DNA of 47,402 bases from Candidatus Eiseniibacteriota bacterium (GCA_016178685.1 JACOSU010000073.1:1-47402), one strand, 5' to 3'. Shown: positions 11,046 to 47,291, numbered from the stretch's first letter. Translations and numbers: made by a program. The notes: generated from the letters alone by a model not told the origin.

Positions 11046-12299
11046 GTGAGGCACCTGTTCGTCATTCCGGGCTGGTATCCGCACCGCCCGTGCTATCCGC
11101 TCGAAGGGGATTACATCCGCCAGCAGGCGGAAGCGATCGGCGATCTGCTCGCCGGCGTCGCCGTCACCCTCAGTCTCTGGGATCAGGGTCGGGGTGACGT
11201 GAGCTTCGGGCATCTTCGCAAGTCTCCGCGCTGCGTTCTCGGGGGCCTGGTGCCCCGCCCGATCGAGACCGCGCTGGCGCCGAACGTCATCGAGCAGCGC
11301 ACGCCCGTTCGGGCTTGGAATCCGCGTTTCGCGGGAGGAAACCGCATGGCCATCCTGCGCGCGAATCGAATCAATCTGGAGCGTGCGAGTGCGCGCTGGG
11401 GTCGGCCCGATATTCTTCATGCCCACGTCAGCTATCCAGCGGGTTGGATGGCCATGCAGCTCAGCCGGGAGCAATCGATTCCGTACGTCCTGACCGAGCA
11501 TATGGGACCGTTCCCCCTCTCCTACTTCAAGACCCACGATGGATCCCTCAACCCGCTGCTGCGTGAACCGCTCGCGAACGCGAATGCCACGATTGCGGTG
11601 AGCCCGAGTCTCGCTGACCAGATCGAATCGTTCGGTCTCGACCGCCCGCGCTTCATCCCAAATCTCGTGGATGAGCGAAAGTATCGGGCAGCGCCAGCTC
11701 GCACCGATGAGACCTTCACGTTTCTGACGCTCTCGAAGCTGTCCACGAAGAAGGGGATACTTGATCTGATCGAGGCGATATCGCTGCTGCGAGCACGTCT
11801 CGAGCCGCGCGATTGGGAGCGCGTTCGCTTTCACATCGGGGGCGACGGACCAGCAAATGAGAATAAGAAGCTTAGGGGCGCCGCAGACGAGCGCGGGCTC
11901 GCCCGCTCGATTACCTGGCTGGGGCTGTTGCCGGTCGATCGGGCAAGGGCGGAGTACGAGTCTTGCGACTGCTACGTGCTCGCGAGCCATCATGAGTCGT
12001 TCGGCATCGTGCTGGTCGAGGCGCTGGCGAGCGGGCGCCCCGTGATCGCCACGCGCTGCGGCGGACCCGAAACCATTGTGAACGACAGCAACGGGCTGCT
12101 GGTCGCGATCCAGGATCCCGAAGGACTGTCGAAAGCGCTCGAAACCATGTTGAATCGCGCACGCAGGTATGACCCACAACGGCTGCACGCGGAGTTCATG
12201 GACCGCTACAGCCGGTCGGCGGTGGTGGGAGCGCTGGATTCTGTGTATGAGGAAGTGCTGGCGCGCGAGGCGAGCGCGGCACGCCGAACCCCGTCGTGA
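11046..12299 (+). CDS. Glycosyltransferase family 4 (TuaC-like)
   Basis: IPGWYP, PDILHAHV, YVLTEH, KKGILDLIEA, ESFGIVLVEALASGRPVIATRCGGPE. Confidence 0.9.
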   Translation: MRHLFVIPGWYPHRPCYPLEGDYIRQQAEAIGDLLAGVAVTLSLWDQGRGDVSFGHLRKSPRCVLGGLVPRPIETALAPNVIEQRTPVRAWNPRFAGGNRMAILRANRINLERASARWGRPDILHAHVSYPAGWMAMQLSREQSIPYVLTEHMGPFPLSYFKTHDGSLNPLLREPLANANATIAVSPSLADQIESFGLDRPRFIPNLVDERKYRAAPARTDETFTFLTLSKLSTKKGILDLIEAISLLRARLEPRDWERVRFHIGGDGPANENKKLRGAADERGLARSITWLGLLPVDRARAEYESCDCYVLASHHESFGIVLVEALASGRPVIATRCGGPETIVNDSNGLLVAIQDPEGLSKALETMLNRARRYDPQRLHAEFMDRYSRSAVVGALDSVYEEVLAREASAARRTPS

Positions 12300-13774
12300 G
12301 AGTTGTCTATCGGCTTGATGAGTTCGCGTGGAAACTCTCGGAACCCCGGCATGTGGTCGGCGTCCTCGCCTCCCTTCTGGACTCCCCCTTTCTGCTTCAG
12401 TCCACGAGCGCGCCAGCTCCGCCTGAGAGCGCCGTGGTGTTCGTGGGCGACCCGGCTCATGCACCGGGCGATTGTGCAGCGCTGCTCCCGCTCACCGACT
12501 GGCCGGCCTGGAAACTGACGGACCTCGAGCTGGCGTCGCTCGAGGACGGCGTGCTCCCGTGTCCGCATGGCGATAGCGGATCCGCCTCAACCGAGCGCGC
12601 GCTTCCCGGCGCGTGCCTGCGCTCGCTCGCGTTCCTGCTCCACCGCGAAGAGGAACGCCTCGATACGAGGCGCGACCAATGGGGTTGTTTCAGCGGCTTC
12701 TCGACTCGGCTTGGCGAATGGGGAGTTCTCGACCGGCCGATCGTCAACCAGTGGGCGCTGCAACTTTCGCGACGCGTTCGAGCATGGGCGGAGAGGCGAA
12801 ACCACCGGCTCGCCGAGGTCCCGCGTTGGAAGAATGGAAAGCGCTTCGCGGTTGCGCTCACGCACGATGTGGACTGGGTGCGGCGCTATTCCGTACGCCA
12901 GTCCCTGCGGCTGCTCGGTCAGGCGCGGAAGCCAGGGTCCTATGCGTTCCGACATGGGCTGCGGTCCACCGCCGAAGCAATCGTCCACTTCGCGGATCGG
13001 AGCGATCCTTACTGCACGTTCGACCGGTGGATGAGCGAGGAAGCCGGGCACGGATTTCGCTCGACGTTCCTGTTCTGTCCGCCTCACCCGAAGCCTCGGC
13101 ACGAATATGATCCCACGTACCTTGAGACCGATCGTGTGCAATTCAGGGGTCGGGCGATGACGGTGGCCGGGCTGATGAGGGCGATCGCCGCTGCGGAATG
13201 CGAGGTAGGGCTCCACGCCAGCTACGAGAGTTACGTCCGCAGCGAGGAGTTGTCACGCCAGCGCGAGCAAATCGAGCGCGCGGCTCGCATTCCGATTCGC
13301 GGAGTGCGCCAGCATTTTCTCCGCTTCGATATCGGGCGCACGTGGGAGGCGCAGGAGCGGGCCGGGTTCGCCTACGATTCGACGCTGGGCTACAACGAGG
13401 CGGTGGGATTTCGAGCCGGCGTGGGCGCGCCGTTTCACCCGTGGAATCCGGCGACGCGCGACGAGCGAACGCTGCTCGAGCTCCCGATGACGCTGATGGA
13501 CGGTACACTGTTCCGCACTTTGAAGCTCACCGCGGCCGGAGCGGTGGAGCGAATTCGCGCACACTTCGATGCGATCGAGCAGGTGGGCGGGCTCGCGGTG
13601 TTGCTGTGGCACCCCAACGCCACCGACGAATCTGCCTTCCCGGGATGGTGGGATGCGTACCGTGAGGCGCTTCAGGACCTGGCGGGGCGGGACGCGTGGG
13701 TCGCGCCCGCCGGAGAAATCGCCGCGTGGTGGCTGGAGCGTGGGCGGCAGATGGACAGCGCCTCCTCGCAGTAA
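12296..13774 (+). CDS. Polysaccharide deacetylase family protein (CE4-like, with N-terminal extension)
   Basis: LTHDVD, EVGLHASY, GVRQHFLRF, YDSTLGY, GFRAG, ELPMTLMD, LLWHP; GTGA overlap with the GT4 gene. Confidence 0.8.
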   Translation: MRVVYRLDEFAWKLSEPRHVVGVLASLLDSPFLLQSTSAPAPPESAVVFVGDPAHAPGDCAALLPLTDWPAWKLTDLELASLEDGVLPCPHGDSGSASTERALPGACLRSLAFLLHREEERLDTRRDQWGCFSGFSTRLGEWGVLDRPIVNQWALQLSRRVRAWAERRNHRLAEVPRWKNGKRFAVALTHDVDWVRRYSVRQSLRLLGQARKPGSYAFRHGLRSTAEAIVHFADRSDPYCTFDRWMSEEAGHGFRSTFLFCPPHPKPRHEYDPTYLETDRVQFRGRAMTVAGLMRAIAAAECEVGLHASYESYVRSEELSRQREQIERAARIPIRGVRQHFLRFDIGRTWEAQERAGFAYDSTLGYNEAVGFRAGVGAPFHPWNPATRDERTLLELPMTLMDGTLFRTLKLTAAGAVERIRAHFDAIEQVGGLAVLLWHPNATDESAFPGWWDAYREALQDLAGRDAWVAPAGEIAAWWLERGRQMDSASSQ

Positions 13775-14471: not shown

Positions 14472-15455
14472 TCAGCGGTAGCTGGCCTTGAGCTGCCCCC
14501 AGCTCCTGCGAACGGTCGGCACCGGCGCGTCACCGAATACCTGAACGCGTGCATTATTCCACTCGGCCACGTAGAAGTTTCCGGTGACGGGATCGCGGGC
14601 GATGTCGCTCGGCGTATAGAGCTGCCCGAGCGCACTACCCATCACTCCCCACTTGGTCAGGAACGAACCACCGTCCGTGAACTTCTGGATCCGATTGTTG
14701 CCGGTGTCGCAGACGTACACGTTTCCGGCGTTGTCGGCCTCAATGTTCTCGGCGCCTCCGAATTGCCCGTCCCCCACGCCCGGGCTTCCCCAGCTCGTGA
14801 CGTAGGTTCCGGTGTCCGTGAACTTCTGTACCCGTTTACCGTCGACCTCCCCCGTGTACACGAATCCGAGCGCATCCACCTCGACACCATAGGGTGTGGC
14901 GAACTGGCCGGGTCCGAAACCCCACGAGCCCCACGAGGTGAGAAACGCGTTCGCGGACGAAAACTTGTCGATGCGGTTGTTCCCGGAATCTGCAACATAA
15001 TAATTCCCCGTTGCGTCGAACGCGATGAACACGGGGTAGTAGAATTGCCCCGGCGCGCTTCCGGGGGATCCGACCGTGCCCAAAAACGTTCCGGAGCTAG
15101 TGAAAATTGAAATCACATGGATATGATGGTCCGTGACGTAGATCAGCCCGGCGGGAGAGACGGCGATTCCAGTCGGGTCCGGGATCTGACCGGGGTAGTA
15201 GGCCGAGACATCCCATGACGTCACGAAGGTCCCGTCCTTCTTGAACTTGTTCACGCGCTCGTTGTGTTGATCGGCAACATAAACGAAGCCGTCGGCGCCG
15301 ATCGCGATGCCTGACGGATGGTCCATCTGGCCATCGCCCGCGCCGAGCGTGCCGAACTTGAAGAGTGGTGATGGCGGGGTATCAGAACGCGCGGATCCGG
15401 CGGCGGCCAATGCAAAGCTAAGGCATACGATGAGGATGCGGGCGAGTGGCTTCAT
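14472..15455 (-). CDS. Secreted NHL-repeat six-bladed beta-propeller with C-terminal SWGQLK tail
   Basis: Signal peptide MKPLARILIVCLSFALAAAGSARS; repeats of G.G.GQF..P.GI......VYVAD.GNNRIQKF; ends PVPTVRRSWGQLKASYR; GGAG SD. Confidence 0.85.
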   Translation of the reverse strand: MKPLARILIVCLSFALAAAGSARSDTPPSPLFKFGTLGAGDGQMDHPSGIAIGADGFVYVADQHNERVNKFKKDGTFVTSWDVSAYYPGQIPDPTGIAVSPAGLIYVTDHHIHVISIFTSSGTFLGTVGSPGSAPGQFYYPVFIAFDATGNYYVADSGNNRIDKFSSANAFLTSWGSWGFGPGQFATPYGVEVDALGFVYTGEVDGKRVQKFTDTGTYVTSWGSPGVGDGQFGGAENIEADNAGNVYVCDTGNNRIQKFTDGGSFLTKWGVMGSALGQLYTPSDIARDPVTGNFYVAEWNNARVQVFGDAPVPTVRRSWGQLKASYR

Positions 15456-15587
15456 GGCGGGACTCCGTTTGTGACGAAGCGTGAGATCATCCGCAGCGTC
15501 GGTTGGCATGTTGCCCGATCACCGCCTGAGTGTCTTACCTCTCGTGATCCGATTCAACACGAATTATCCCGCGCGTTCCCGATACCC

Positions 15588-40382: not shown

Positions 40383-42866
40383 TCAGTGCGCGTAATGCGC
40401 GGCCTGGTCGTCGGGCCGCTCGGGAGGCGCCGGGGTTTCGGGCCGGTCGAGCGCGCGTTCCAGCACCTGATCCATGTTCTCGATCTCGACGAACTCGAGA
40501 TCGGCGCGCACGTTCTCCGGCACTTCCGCGAGATCCTTCTGGTTTCCGGCCGGGATCAGCAGCGTGCGGATGCCGGCCCGCCGCGCCGCCACCGCCTTCT
40601 CGGTGAGACCGCCGATCGGCAGCACCGTCCCGCGCAGCGTGATTTCGCCGGTCATCGCCACGTCGGACCTGGTCGGCACTCCGGTCAGCGCACTCACCAT
40701 CGCGGTCGCGATCGTGATGCCGGCCGAAGGGCCGTCCTTGGGGATCGCGCCCTCGGGCACGTGAACGTGCACGTCGATGTCGCGGTAGAACCACTTGTCG
40801 AGCCCGAGCTGCGTCGCGCGGGACCTAGCGTACGACAGCGCGGCGTGGCCGCTCTCGCGCATCACCTCGCCGAGCTTGCCGGTCAACTGCAGTTCTCCCT
40901 TGCCCGGAAGAATGCTGACTTCGATGGTCAGCAGGTCGCCGCCGGTTTCGGTCCACGCCACCCCGTTCGCCACTCCGATGCGGGCCTTGCGCTCCACCGG
41001 GGAATCGAGAAAGCGCGGCGGACCGAGGTACCGATGCAGGTTGTCGGCGCTGATTCGCATCGCGCCCTTCAGGCGGCCCGACGCCTTGCGGCGCGCGACC
41101 TTGCGGCACAGGCTCGCGATCTGGCGCTCGAGGCTGCGCACGCCGGCTTCGCGCGTGTAATGGTTCGCGAGCGCGCGGATCGCCTCGACGCTCACGCGCA
41201 GGTCGGCGCTCTGGAGTCCCGCCGCGGCGATCTGCTTGGGAACCAGGAAGCGGCGCGCGATCTCGATCTTCTCGGTTTCGAGGTAGCCGGGCAGCCGGAT
41301 GATCTCCATGCGGTCTTCGAGCGCTGCCGGGATCGAGTGCAGGCTGTTCCCGGTGCAGATGAACATCACCTGCGAAAGATCGAAGTCCACCTCGAGATAG
41401 TGGTCGTTGAACGTATGGTTCTGCTCGGGATCCAGCACTTCGAGCAGCGCCGAGGCGGGATCGCCGCGGAAGTCGGCCCCCAGCTTGTCGATCTCGTCGA
41501 GCAGGAACACCGGATTGCGGCTTCCGGCGCGGCGCAGGCTCTGGATCACGCGCCCGGGCAGCGAACCGATGTAGGTGCGACGGTGGCCACGAATCTCGGC
41601 TTCGTCGCGCACCCCGCCCAGCGCGACGCGCACGAAGCGGCGCCCCAGCGACCGCGCGATCGACTTTCCGAGCGAGGTCTTGCCCACGCCGGGCGGACCG
41701 ACGAAGCACAGGATCGGGCCGCGGTTCCTGCCGGTGAGCTTGAGCACCGCCAGGTACTCGATGATCCGGTCCTTGATCTTGCGCAGCCCGTAATGGTCCT
41801 CGTCGAGAACGTCCTCGACCTTCTGAAGATCGCCGTGATCGCGCGTGACGCGCGACCAGGGCAGCGACACCAGCCAGTCGAGGTAGTTGCGCACCACGGT
41901 CGCCTCGGGCGACATGAAGCTCATCTTCGAGAGGCGGTCGAGCTCTTTCATGGCCTTCGCCACGACTTCGCGCGGCATCCGCGCCTTGCGGATCGAGGCG
42001 CTCAGCTCGTCGATCTCGCTCGCGAACTCGTTCTGGTGTCCCAGCTCCTTGCGGATCGCCTTGAGCTGCTCGTTGAGATAGAACTCCTTCTGATTCTTGT
42101 GCACCTGCGAGCGCACCTGCCCCTCGAGCTTGCGCTCGAGCTTCACGATCTCGAGCTCGGCCGAAAGGATGTCGCCGAGCAGCTTGAGGCGCGAGGGCGC
42201 GCCGTCCGCCTCGAGCAGCCGCTGCTTCTGCGGCACCTTGATCAGGAGATGCGCGGCCACGGTGTGCGCGAGCGTCGCTGGATCCGCGATGTTGTTCGCC
42301 GCGGTCAGCACCTCGTCGGGGATGCGCCGGTTCAAGTGAACGTACTCGTTGAACTGGGCGAGCACGTGGCGCATCTGCGCCTCGATTTCGGCTCCGGAGG
42401 TCCGCTCGTCTTCGATCGGAGCGATCCGCACCGTGTAGTAGTCGCTCGACCAGAAGAAGCGCTGGACGCGCGCCCGGCACAGCCCCTCGACCAGCACGCG
42501 CATGGTGCCGTCCGGCAGCCGGAACAGCTGGAGCACGCGGACCAGAGAGCCGACCTTGTAGAGTTCCTGATGCGTGGGATCCGCGACTTCGCTGCGGCGC
42601 TGCGCGGTCACGAACAGCATGCGGTCGCGGGCGACCGCCTTCTCGATCGCGTTGATGGAGGGGACTCGCCCGACCAGCAGCGGAATCGTCATGTAGGGAA
42701 ACACCACCACGTCGCGCAGCGGCAGTAGCGGCAGGCGGTCGCGGAATTCGAAGCGTTCGTCACCGCGCTGGATGGAAAGGGTCTGGGCGCGCCCGGACTC
42801 GGGGCCCGGACGAACGGAGGACGTGGCCTTCCTGCGCGCTTTCGGGATGCGGGGGCTGCCGGTCAC
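40383..42866 (-). CDS. lon: ATP-dependent protease La
   Basis: [40 protein letters not shown]; GTG start with GAGAGGA SD (start approximate). Confidence 0.95.
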
Positions 42867-42932
42867 TCGGAATCCTCTCGGTTGTGTGCGGCCGGTGGGA
42901 CGCGACGCGCGGTCCCTGGGAAGCGGTCCCAC

Positions 42933-43784
42933 TCATCGCTCAGGGCATCGGCGGGTTGGATCGCAATCTACACGTTTCACCCGCGGCGCGCCCGTCGACC
43001 CACGAGGGGCCGCCGGAGTACCAAGTGGCCACGGCCTGGTCCGCACGATCTTTGCCTGGCGCACCGGCCGCGCCGCGGCGGCTGCGTTTCCCATCACCAC
43101 CGAGATCGATGCGGGCTCAGAACCACGCGACCCGATGGTCTTCAGTGAACCCCAGGTGGCCCGCCGCACCGGTGTCACGCTTTCGGGCGTCACCGTCGTC
43201 CGGCTGGAGCCGTTCGAGGGGGTCCAGGTCCCACCACTGTCCAGACTCAGGTCGGTGAAAACGTCGAAGAAGCTGTCGATGCGAAAGTTTCCCCCGCCCA
43301 GGTCCGTGATCATGGTTTGCCCGTGCGAAGGCTGGCTCGTGCTCTCACGGATCTGGACTCCGGGAGGGAGCGATCCGCCCGAGAGGTCGAGCTGGAGCAT
43401 CTCGGTGTCGAATGTCATTCCGTCCGGCCGGCCCACCGCGTGCTCGTGACCGTGGCCGGTGGTTTGCGCAGGTTGCCAATGCGCGCCGCCGTCGCCGGTG
43501 ATCTCGAGCTCGACGAAGACGTCGAAAAAGCTGTCGATCGCGAAGGCCGGGGGTTGCGGCGGCATGCATTGCGTGAAGTTCGAAAGATTCACGTTGCGAA
43601 TCATAACGGACGTGGTTCCATAGCCCACCGGCCCCTGCAGGAAGTAGCCACAGCCCGCCTGCGGGAGCAGGCACGCGCCGTGTTCCGTGCATTGCGCCCA
43701 CGCGCGACCCGGAACCGAGAGCGCGAGGAGTGAGACCAGGGCGGGAGCGAGCAGCAGAACAGGGCGTAGCGAAACGCGGCGCAT
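42933..43784 (-). CDS. Secreted hypothetical protein with two IDSFFDVF repeats and an internal TWGSLK motif
   Basis: GAGGAGGAG SD, signal peptide ending AWA, Cys-containing N-region, IDSFFDVF twice, FDTEMLQLDLSG. Confidence 0.75.
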   Translation of the reverse strand: MRRVSLRPVLLLAPALVSLLALSVPGRAWAQCTEHGACLLPQAGCGYFLQGPVGYGTTSVMIRNVNLSNFTQCMPPQPPAFAIDSFFDVFVELEITGDGGAHWQPAQTTGHGHEHAVGRPDGMTFDTEMLQLDLSGGSLPPGVQIRESTSQPSHGQTMITDLGGGNFRIDSFFDVFTDLSLDSGGTWTPSNGSSRTTVTPESVTPVRRATWGSLKTIGSRGSEPASISVVMGNAAAAARPVRQAKIVRTRPWPLGTPAAPRGSTGAPRVKRVDCDPTRRCPER

Positions 43785-43857
43785 GGGGGACTCCTCCTCT
43801 GGATGTGAGTGCTCAGCGCCCTCCGGATCGTCCGGGTGGCTGCGCGGGAGCCCTTCC

Positions 43858-43887
43858 AGTCTAGGCGCGCGCGCGCGCTGCGTTCCA
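43858..43887 (-). promoter_or_regulatory. Possible promoter of the IDSFFDVF gene
   Basis: -10 TAGACT preceded by GCGCGCGCC, identical to the ychF promoter; weak -35 (TGGAAC) at N18. Confidence 0.4.
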
Positions 43888-43978
43888 GCGAAACTTGCAC
43901 CCCAGGGGGGCCGGACGGAGCGCACGGGCGCCCGGCGGTCGCGGCCACCCGCCCGCGCGGTACCGGGGCGGCCGCGCC

Positions 43979-44071: not shown

Positions 44072-45331
<1,260 letters not shown>

Positions 45332-45369
45332 GCATCTCCCGTCGGCGTCCGCGGCGGACGCCCACTCGA

Positions 45370-45954
45370 TTACTTGCGCTTCTCGATGATCTCGTCGATC
45401 AGACCGTACTCCTTGGCGTCCTGCACCGACATGAAATTGTTGCGGTCGGTGTCCTTTTCGATCTGCTCCAGCGTACGTCCGGTGTGCTTGGACAGGATGG
45501 AGTTCAACTGCTCCCTCATCTTCTGGATCTCGCGGGTGTAGATCTCGATGTCCGTCACCTGGCCCTGGGTTCCGCCCAGCGGCTGGTGGATCATGATCCG
45601 CGAATTCGGCAGCGAGGACCGTTTGCCCTTGGCTCCCGCCGCAAGCAGCACGGCCGACATGCTGGCGGCCTGTCCCATGCACAGCGTCGCGACGTCGGGC
45701 TTCACGAACTGCATCGTGTCGTAGATCGCGAGCCCGGCCGTCACCATTCCGCCCGGGCTGTGGATGTACAGGTTGATGTCGCGATCCGGATCCTCGCCTT
45801 CAAGGAAGATCATCTGCGCGATCACCAGGTTCGCGATCATGTCGTCGATCGGCGTTCCGATGAAGATGATGCGGTCCTTGAGGAGTCGCGAGTAGATGTC
45901 GTACGCGCGTTCGCCCCGCCCCGTCTGCTCCACCACGATGGGAACCAGCCCCAT
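45370..45954 (-). CDS. clpP: ATP-dependent Clp protease proteolytic subunit
   Basis: [27 protein letters not shown]. Confidence 0.96.
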
Positions 45955-45995: not shown

Positions 45996-47291
45996 TCAGC
46001 GGGTCGCCGGCACCACCAGCGGATGTTCGGCGGGCGAGTCCTTCACGTCCGCCGCCTGGATCAGCCAGTCGAACGCCTTGCGCTCGAGCAGCGTTTCGCG
46101 CAGCGCCTGCCGCCGCTCCTGCGTCTGGTAGCGCGCCCGCACTCGCGCCGCCTGGCGCGGGTCGGCGTCCGCCATCCGCTGGATCTCGGCGGCCACTTCG
46201 TCTTCGCTCACGTGCAGCTTTTCCTGACGCGCCACCGCCCCGAGCAGCACCTCGCGCCGCAGCGACCGCTGGACGTTCGGAAGGTAGCGCTGTTCCAGCT
46301 CGGATCTCAGCTCGGCGCGCACCTCGCGCCCGTTCGTCGCCTCCGAGATCACGCGCTCCAGCATGTACTCGACCAGCCGTTGCGGCAAATCGAAGGGATT
46401 GCGGCGCACCAGCTCCTCGCTGATCGCGCCCTCGGATTCCCGCCGCACGCGCACGCGCTCCTCCCCTTCGAGGTTCTGCCTCACGCGCGAGCGCAGTTCA
46501 TCGAGGGATTCCAGCTGGAAGACCTCACGAGCAAGGTTATCGTCCAGCGGACGCAACTTCTTCTCCTGGATTTTCTTGACCTGAAGCACGTAGCGGGAGG
46601 ATTTCCCGGCCAGTTCGGGAGCGGCATAGTCCTCAGGATAGCGGATTTCGACGGTCCGCTCCTGCCCGGCCCGGGCCCCCAGCAGCCCGTTCTCGAGGTC
46701 GGAAGGAACCCCTTCGGCGCCGAGTTGGATGCGGCGTCCCTTGGCACGGGTTCCGTTCAGCCGGCGTCCGTTCGCGTCGAGCCGCGTGGAGTCGAGCAGC
46801 ACGACGTCGCCGCGCTCGGCCGGCCGCTCCAGATCCACGAACACCGCCGAGTCCTCGCGCAGATCGTGGAGGACGCGATCCACCGCCGAATCGTCCACCG
46901 GACGCGCGCTGCGCGTGAGCGGCAGACCCCGGTAGTCGCGGGCCTCGATCTCGGGGCGCACGTCAACCACGGCCTCGAAGCGCAGCGGCTGGCCGGGACC
47001 CAGGCGCACATTGCGCACCAGCGGCGGCACCACCGGCGAGAGCTTCGCCTCCTCCACCGCTGCGCCCGTCACGCGCGGCAGCGTGCTCTCGAGAAATTCC
47101 TGCTCGACCGCGGCCGCAAACTGCGTGCGCACCATGTCGAGCGGCACCTTCCCTTTTCGAAACCCGGGCAGACTCGCGCGCCGCTGGATCTGACGAGCGA
47201 CATCGTCCAGCCGGCGCTCAACCTCCTCCAGCGGCACTTCGACTTCCAGCGCGTGCTGCCAGCTTCCCGTGGAACGGACCGAGAGATTCAT
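45996..47291 (-). CDS. tig: Trigger factor
   Basis: PGFRKGKVP ribosome-binding motif, FKBP-like middle domain (YPEDY...LAGK); synteny with clpP. Confidence 0.93.

Follow-up and report, generated by a model that had tools for sequence, protein, structure and literature searches.

The window analysed here, a 47,402-nt contig of Candidatus Eiseniibacteriota bacterium whose parent genome (G000) measures 2.16 Mb, carries on its minus strand at 14472–15455 the gene of a secreted six-bladed NHL beta-propeller, and our subject is the 17-residue tail, PVPTVRRSWGQLKASYR, with which this protein ends (14475–14525, minus; stop codon 14472–14474). The open frame (14472–15509, minus) closes with FGDAPVPTVRRSWGQLKASYR-stop, which confirms the C-terminus described in an earlier note on this DNA, and its probable start is MKPLARIL at 15455, giving 327 aa with a signal-peptide-like N-terminus. 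The predicted Sec signal peptide, MKPLARILIVCLSFALAAAGSARS (15384–15455, minus), was read from the sequence, and residues 3–17 are a helix in the AlphaFold2 (AF2) model. Five stretches of the protein match Pfam NHL (E=4e-35), which places it among the NHL repeat propellers (PF01436); it also scores 277 bits on the NCBIfam model for the PEP-CTERM protein ScyF, under the cut-off of that model. The AF2 model, made from 25 aligned sequences, has a mean predicted local distance difference test score (pLDDT) of 92, with the propeller blocks above 95, and only 17–20 residues extend past the last propeller strand. Residues 308–318 are modelled as a Pro-rich coil linker and residues 319–326, the core WGQLKASY (14478–14501, minus), as a short, probably amphipathic helix with a pLDDT of about 57, on which W, L and Y would share the hydrophobic face. 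Since a confident propeller is followed by a coil linker and a low-confidence helix, the tail looks like an appendage that lies outside the fold.

A second tail gene is found in the same window at 43134–43784 (minus), within an open frame that covers 42933–43925 (minus). Its product, an orphan fold, starts with MRRVSLRP at 43784 and reaches ...TWGSLKTI, where it is cut off in the window at 43134; it has no family match in Pfam or NCBIfam and no usable match in the ESM Atlas, and no RNA data set was listed as containing its gene. The earlier note had placed the motif in this unrelated protein at 43134–43175. The motif, VTPVRRATWGSLKTI, is indeed present, but its 15 residues span 43134–43178, the earlier span being 3 bases short and holding the last 14 of them. 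The final Tyr-Arg-stop is missing from the contig, and the frame runs on for about 67–68 Ala/Arg/Pro-rich codons (42933–43133, minus) to the start region of lon. The junction (43133–43134) was compared with contigs of public sequencing runs, which come from one study that may be the window's own source and so are not independent. When contigs of four runs were aligned with 42900–43800, three runs covered 43134 and agreed with the window without difference down to that position. X1 record 1 departs from the window there, its next letters on the gene strand encoding Tyr-Arg-stop, and in X2 record 3 and X3 record 9 the two flanks of 43134 are separated by 72 extra letters. An orthologue in another genome (G132, 61% identical) closes with TPARAFTWGQIKTIYR-stop, i.e. 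TWGQIKTIYR-stop. From the contigs of X1–X3 and this orthologue we conclude that the window is 72 bases short and that the real second protein therefore ends in a canonical tail. The loss deletes Tyr-Arg-stop and creates a false 68-codon extension abutting lon, so the run-on is probably non-coding and the product of a faulty contig; the gap itself reflects either misassembly or a deletion in the strain. Comparable low-complexity run-ons, of 49 and 72 residues, follow the motif in two of 31 extra instances taken from other genomes.

We then searched the whole genome for the tail. In a six-frame translation (32,032 segments), the regular expression [ST]W[GA].[LIVM]K had 23 matches, 19 of which end 4–5 residues before a stop, with Y-R/H/K. 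A relaxed expression, run on the last 25 residues of 18,021 segments, found 27 C-termini, consisting of 19 [ST]WG tails, 4 [ST]FG tails and 4 matches in junk frames, and at the DNA level a pattern of tail plus stop matched 16 times and the same pattern reversed not once. The [ST]FG variants of the core belong to four small proteins (C12:5196–5597, two genes of C186 and one of C193). All 23 tails of the genome stand at the C-terminus of a signal-peptide protein, against 0 of 9,241 internal control windows with the relaxed expression, and the folds of these proteins are unrelated. The enrichment at the C-termini of exported proteins for which the earlier note had proposed a test is found, and so are the Sec signal peptides that it had described: the 22 tail frames with a complete N-terminus all have a signal-peptide-like start by eye, and a crude rule marks 216 of the 1,391 called genes, these calls having been made by eye and by that rule rather than by a dedicated predictor.

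The carriers include the NHL propeller, cupredoxin-like, GEVED-domain, lamin-tail-domain (LTD) and choice-of-anchor V proteins and several orphan families. The choice-of-anchor V carrier on contig C145 scores 63.2 bits on NF041895 (cut-off 42), which assigns it to that family. For the orphan family on contig C88, AF2 gave a mean pLDDT of 58.5 and Foldseek found no match in the PDB at E up to 0.001. Tail genes also form tandem arrays of paralogues (three on C192 and two each on C88, C40 and C186). The carriers are small: their median length is about 240 aa (starts taken by eye) vs 733 aa for the 37 open frames that match the type A domain of T9SS (type IX secretion system).

An alignment of the NHL tail with 19 other tails of the genome shows an invariant G and K and at least 90% conservation of W and Y; across all 23 tails the Gly is invariant and the Lys is never swapped for Arg. 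The consensus consists of a Pro-rich linker, [TV]-P-[VTA]-[RE]-x-x, and a nine-residue core, [ST]-W-G-x-[ILV]-K-x-x-Y, usually followed by one basic residue and the stop, and a Cys is frequent 3–5 residues ahead of the linker. A profile built from 90 tails and scored on 1.84 billion representative proteins (protein clusters at 50% identity) found 1,560 clusters with E no higher than 0.001. The best 150 of these were selected by score, so that the invariance among them is inflated; in them the linker reads [TV], P (144/150), [VTA], R or E, x, x, and the core T/S (150), W (150), G (150), x, I/V/L, K (150), A/S/T, L (109) and Y (150), with R after the core in 119. The motif lies 1–8 residues from the end in all 150: one residue follows the Tyr in 126, two in 16 and three to eight in 8. 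Among the 31 extra motif instances, 29 have an overhang of 0–12 residues. This variable overhang fits the recognition of the motif rather than of a free carboxylate. The hydrophobic positions are spaced 0, 3, 6 and 7, with basic residues beside them, and a helical arrangement would bring W, I/V/L, L and Y onto one face, with K and R alongside. A second, internal copy of the motif is present in four of the 150 best hits (P0179, P0237, P0243 and P0253), which are possibly pairs of tandem tail genes fused by the loss of a stop. A word-index search with the tail profile returned 58 proteins, most of them related to the query families, and contributed little to breadth.

Variant tails occur elsewhere. 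TWS cores are found in G036 and in G091, which carries this form in place of the usual core, and G164 has a TWE core and a Trp-less form, T-L-T-R-I-K-A-M-F-R; variant loci include L193:47-1759 and L202:2877-3749. Many tail proteins of family f10 (L026–L055; genomes G021, G051, G089, G102 and G129) share a Cys-rich module ahead of the linker, approximately C-x3-GG-x-[FY]-x-G-x-G-x2-C-x3-P-C.

The tail is widespread in the phylum. The DNA pattern is present in 143 of 151 sampled genomes (142 of 150 without the unpublished G015), in up to about 50 copies each, and the reversed pattern is absent from all 151. Copies are few (0–5) in the small genomes of family f7, and five genomes of genus g41 have no tails, the relaxed pattern giving no more than its control in the three of them on which it was run. 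Where tails are present, they mark about 1% of genes. A scan of one genome per species found at least 129 stretches; of the 80 among the matches listed, most are titled Eisenbacteria or 'uncultured bacterium' and others Latescibacterota, Krumholzibacteriia, Fibrobacteraceae or Effluviviaceae, these lineage names, here and below, following the record titles. All 79 stretches that could be checked close an open frame. Across five genomes, titled Latescibacterota, Krumholzibacteriia, Fibrobacteraceae, Effluviviaceae and 'bacterium', the counts of tails per genome range from 16 to 56 (the five values being 24, 17, 16, 31 and 56), so the occurrence in Eisenbacteria and Latescibacterota, which the earlier note had stated, holds for genomes so titled, among others. 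Few tails were seen in genomes titled Polyangiaceae (two), Kerfeldbacteria (three) and Woesearchaeota (one), which were set aside as possible binning errors.

In choice-of-anchor V orthologues down to 42% identity, the tail is kept in 17 of 18, the eighteenth being a fragment, and the residues past the Tyr vary. The codons are free to vary: every synonymous codon is used for S/T, G, I/V/L, K, Y and R, as are all three stops, while W, G, K and Y of the peptide stay fixed, which argues for selection on the peptide.

The tail also changes places with known sorting signals. Among the 120 best homologues of the NHL protein, 14 end in a tail and are all propeller-only proteins of 312–393 aa; nine others, which are longer, bear the T9SS domains PF18962 or PF13860, and none has both tail and domain. 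Likewise, in a homologue of the second window protein (G010, 39% identical) the C-terminus consists of a Pro-Gly-Phe motif followed by a hydrophobic helix and RRRA, i.e. of a PEP/PGF-CTERM-like signal. The choice-of-anchor V carrier belongs to a family that NCBI named after the choice of anchors among its members, and the NHL protein resembles, below the cut-off, the PEP-CTERM protein ScyF. The alternation with a T9SS type A domain in one homologous family and a PEP/PGF-CTERM-like signal in another makes the tail most likely a modular sorting or anchoring tag.

This tag is not described in curated libraries. When 20 tail segments of 42 aa each were compared with Pfam and NCBIfam release 20, no model matched at E up to 10, and no paper on the tail was found in the searchable full-text literature, which leaves out most subscription journals. 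Measured against these libraries and that literature, the tail would constitute an undescribed class of C-terminal sorting signal with an architecture unlike the known ones, and the earlier note was right to call it uncharacterised, short, and devoid of a transmembrane helix or of a domain the size of the T9SS C-terminal domain (CTD).

The closest likenesses are with T9SS and with tripartite signals. The type A CTD of T9SS (TIGR04183/PF18962), which is carried by PorV and cut by PorU, is C-terminal on Sec-exported proteins of many folds, as is the tail. The two share lineages and genomes, including genomes with SprA, PorV and PorU, and the tail stands in for the type A CTD in the NHL homologues. 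However, T9SS CTDs, of which type B is carried by PorP-like proteins, are beta-sandwiches of 70–100 residues, whereas the tail has 17 residues with a nine-residue core and is modelled as a coil plus an eight-residue helix. The type A model matches neither the tail segments nor the whole carriers, though the genome has 37 matches elsewhere, and there is no room for a CTD after the tail, the motif being too near the end in 29 of the 31 extra instances (at most 12 residues from the stop) and in the 150 best hits (at most 8). Moreover, T9SS parts remain where tails are absent. Tripartite signals (PEP-CTERM/exosortase, PGF-CTERM/archaeosortase, LPXTG/sortase, GlyGly-CTERM/rhombosortase and MYXO-CTERM) are, like the tail, short C-terminal signatures on unrelated exported proteins with many copies per genome; the tail exchanges with a signal of this type in the homologue of the second protein, and one choice-of-anchor member carries it. 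These signals are composed of a motif, a hydrophobic transmembrane helix and a basic cluster, whereas the tail has no transmembrane stretch, no more than one or two basic residues at its end, and only 0–12 residues after the motif, usually a single R, H or K. No sortase-like gene was seen beside tail genes in the two genomes whose neighbours were viewed (G000 and G164). The beta-signal of outer-membrane proteins differs too, since it is a terminal strand with an aromatic last residue, usually Phe; five outer-membrane proteins at the T9SS-related loci of this genome end in F, whereas the tail ends in Y-R/H/K on carriers with soluble folds.

Two further kinds of system bear a likeness to the tail. 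The SKL-type peroxisomal targeting signal 1 (PTS1) is read by Pex5, a tetratricopeptide repeat receptor, and the cargo-loading peptides of encapsulins are comparable. Like the tail, these are very short C-terminal peptides on unrelated folded proteins, a resemblance that would be one of working and not of descent, the two systems being eukaryotic or cytoplasmic and their sequences different. The low-molecular-weight penicillin-binding proteins of the E. coli PBP5 type use a C-terminal amphipathic helix as a membrane anchor, and share with the tail proteins a Sec-exported soluble domain and the lack of a transmembrane segment; such a C-terminal helix is predicted for the tail at low confidence. 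PBP5-type helices are about twice as long, belong to one family and are poorly conserved, whereas the tail is common to unrelated families with W, G, K and Y fixed.

Taken together, these observations suggest that the tail may well be a modular tag for sorting or retention at the C-terminus. A putative envelope protein would read it as a short helical peptide, and in small proteins it would take the part that the T9SS domain or PEP-CTERM-type signals play in their homologues; we rate this as about an even chance. Once the protein has been exported and has folded in the periplasm, its flexible linker would present the core as a short amphipathic helix, which a conserved envelope protein would bind as a peptide, much as Pex5 reads PTS1, and this binding would steer the protein to, or retain it at, the outer membrane or the cell surface. 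The tail would be favoured on small proteins, as a substitute for the T9SS CTD or the PEP-CTERM-type signal of their homologues. From the sequence evidence, we infer both the reading by a protein and the place where the tail proteins would end up, with or without cleavage of the tail. A more detailed version, possible rather than probable, is that a receptor encoded away from its clients reads the nine-residue peptide in a PTS1-like manner, delivers small folded proteins to the outer membrane or surface and may feed the type IX translocon without an 80-residue domain, the system being shared by Eisenbacteria, Latescibacterota, Krumholzibacteria, KSB1-like and Fibrobacter-related lineages.

Several results weigh against a tag with a dedicated reader. 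Linkage and profile tests turned up neither a reader nor a processing enzyme. Tail genes are dispersed among housekeeping genes, and inspection by eye of 15 contigs of G000 and 12 regions of G164 showed no neighbour that recurs. Genes that might have been expected to track the tail do not discriminate: PorU-like C25 peptidases are present in 151 of 151 phylum genomes, including those of the tail-less g41, PorV/PorQ-family barrels in 30 of 30 sampled genomes (g41 keeps 7–9 copies), and a 973-aa protein linked to the second PorV-like barrel in 30 of 30. Linkage of tail genes to C25 genes is not seen either, G102 having about 3 pairs within 7 kb vs about 1.9 expected by a hand calculation. The conservation among the best database hits is, as mentioned, partly a product of their selection, and a nine-residue amphipathic helix could bind lipid by itself, free of any receptor. 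Hence, of the earlier inference of a dedicated export or surface-attachment signal, one part stands, namely that the tail is common, strictly C-terminal and swaps with known sorting domains; the dedicated machinery was not found by these tests.

In an unlikely alternative, the tail would anchor proteins directly to membrane or lipopolysaccharide: the W/I/L/Y face of an interfacial amphipathic helix, flanked by K and R, would attach the protein, with no receptor, either to the outer membrane or to the inner membrane's outer leaflet, as the PBP5 helix does. The helix that AF2 predicts, at low confidence, for WGQLKASY behind a flexible linker, the amphipathic spacing of hydrophobic and basic positions read from the alignment, the variable distance to the C-terminus and the lack of machinery in linkage and profile tests are all consistent with such an anchor. 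However, helices that bind lipid usually conserve their character rather than their exact residues, whereas W, G, K and Y of the tail are fixed across several labelled phyla, and nine residues would make a weak lipid anchor. A Gly fixed within the helix, and a Lys for which none of the genome's 23 tails has Arg, point instead to a shaped binding site.

We also consider it unlikely, rather more so, that the tail is a minimal T9SS-coupled 'type C' signal, passed to the T9SS translocon or to a PorV/PorQ-family carrier so that small proteins cross or stay at the outer membrane without an 80-residue CTD. T9SS parts are present in all eight tail-rich genomes tested: G000 has SprA, PorU (485 bits, cut-off 420) with PorV directly downstream, three PorV/PorQ-family barrels and the 37 type A domain matches, SprA is found in G153 and G160–G164, and in G151 about 30 CTD matches accompany a truncated PorU-like gene. 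In addition, the NHL family shows tail and type A CTD in alternation, each of the 30 sampled genomes of the phylum has 5–11 PorV/PorQ-family barrels, and the tail proteins are small compared with the frames that match the CTD. Alternative carriers are also established for another CTD class, in the source that describes the carriers of type A and type B CTDs (PMC10994853). Nevertheless, all these lineages are related, so that common descent confounds the co-occurrence of tail and T9SS. The association with SprA, PorU and PorV for which the earlier note had proposed phylogenetic profiling is thus there, but PorU-like peptidases and PorV-family barrels are intact in tail-less relatives, g41 holding both with no tails at all. 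Nor are tail genes linked to the genes of PorV-family proteins, G102 and G089 each having a single pair less than 4 kb apart, which is about chance; direct adjacency with a C25 gene was seen once in five f10 genomes (G102, C1:316083 and C1:321324). A nine-residue helix cannot mimic the beta-sandwich that PorV binds, and G000 has a secretin, which means that another outer-membrane route exists.

A tag for processing, turnover or assembly, i.e. a sequence recognised by a protease or chaperone of the periplasm, or one through which small proteins dock on a common scaffold by helix or strand complementation, is very unlikely in our view. The C-terminal place with its variable overhang would suit it, as would the frequent tandem arrays of paralogues, among them one of five tail genes in G164 (C23) besides those of G000, but no candidate scaffold or protease was found, and replacement by true sorting domains in homologues is more in keeping with an address than with a degron. 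Finally, a nucleic-acid element (such as a terminator, recombination site or mobile 3′ cassette) translated by accident, which was raised only since the motif sits at the stop codon and for which no support was found, is hardly credible, being contradicted already by the free use of codons and stops around a fixed peptide, by the absence of the reversed pattern from the 151 genomes and by tails that lie up to 12 codons from the stop.

C-terminal sorting signals are a main means of predicting the surface proteins of bacteria, and the known classes have each led to a dedicated machine (sortase, exosortase and T9SS). At least 1,560 clusters at 50% identity carry the tail, nearly all of them annotated as hypothetical proteins, and a tail model would label many probable envelope or surface proteins in several uncultured phyla of soil, groundwater and sediment. 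If a receptor exists, it would represent a new form of envelope sorting, by a very short helical peptide with neither a membrane anchor nor a folded domain, and the tail could serve as a compact tag for protein display.

Some further observations concern T9SS genes and genome records. The three PorV/PorQ-family barrels of G000 are encoded at C23:20123-21085, C111:7271-8236 and C118:4057-5061, and none of them reaches the NCBIfam model 'PorV2, putative type IX sorting system' (NF052325); Porphyromonas has two barrels of this family, so that the 5–11 per genome in the 30 sampled genomes of the phylum represent an expansion. The gene after PorU–PorV in G000 (C23:21116-24499) encodes a 1,127-aa protein with a T9SS domain that weakly matches the NCBIfam model 'T9SS-dependent M6-like inactivated metalloprotease' (147 bits, cut-off 600). 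Large C25 peptidase genes (about 1,500–1,700 aa) stand in tandem, five at G096:C1:495566-516153 and three at G102:C1:264803-275410, and in several of the phylum's families each genome shows at least 12 C25 matches. Metagenome-assembled genomes titled Candidatus Limnocylindria (G151, L084) and Verrucomicrobiia (G153, L135) have 31 and 26 tails, respectively, plus PorU, SprA and T9SS domain matches; the titles of G151 and G153 are probably wrong, and neither was counted toward a spread beyond the T9SS-bearing group.

In the window, the Shine-Dalgarno-to-start strings GGAGTCCCGCCATG and GGAGTCCCCCATG, which the earlier note had found nearly identical, are both present. GGAGTCCC has 62 copies in the genome, nine of them right before a start codon, and is no common trait of the genes with tails. 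The NHL gene borders a glycosyltransferase-rich stretch (11046–13774), and the second tail gene lies amid lon (40383–42932), clpX (44072–45682) and a trigger-factor-like gene (45996–47291), all on the minus strand and named from their sequence.

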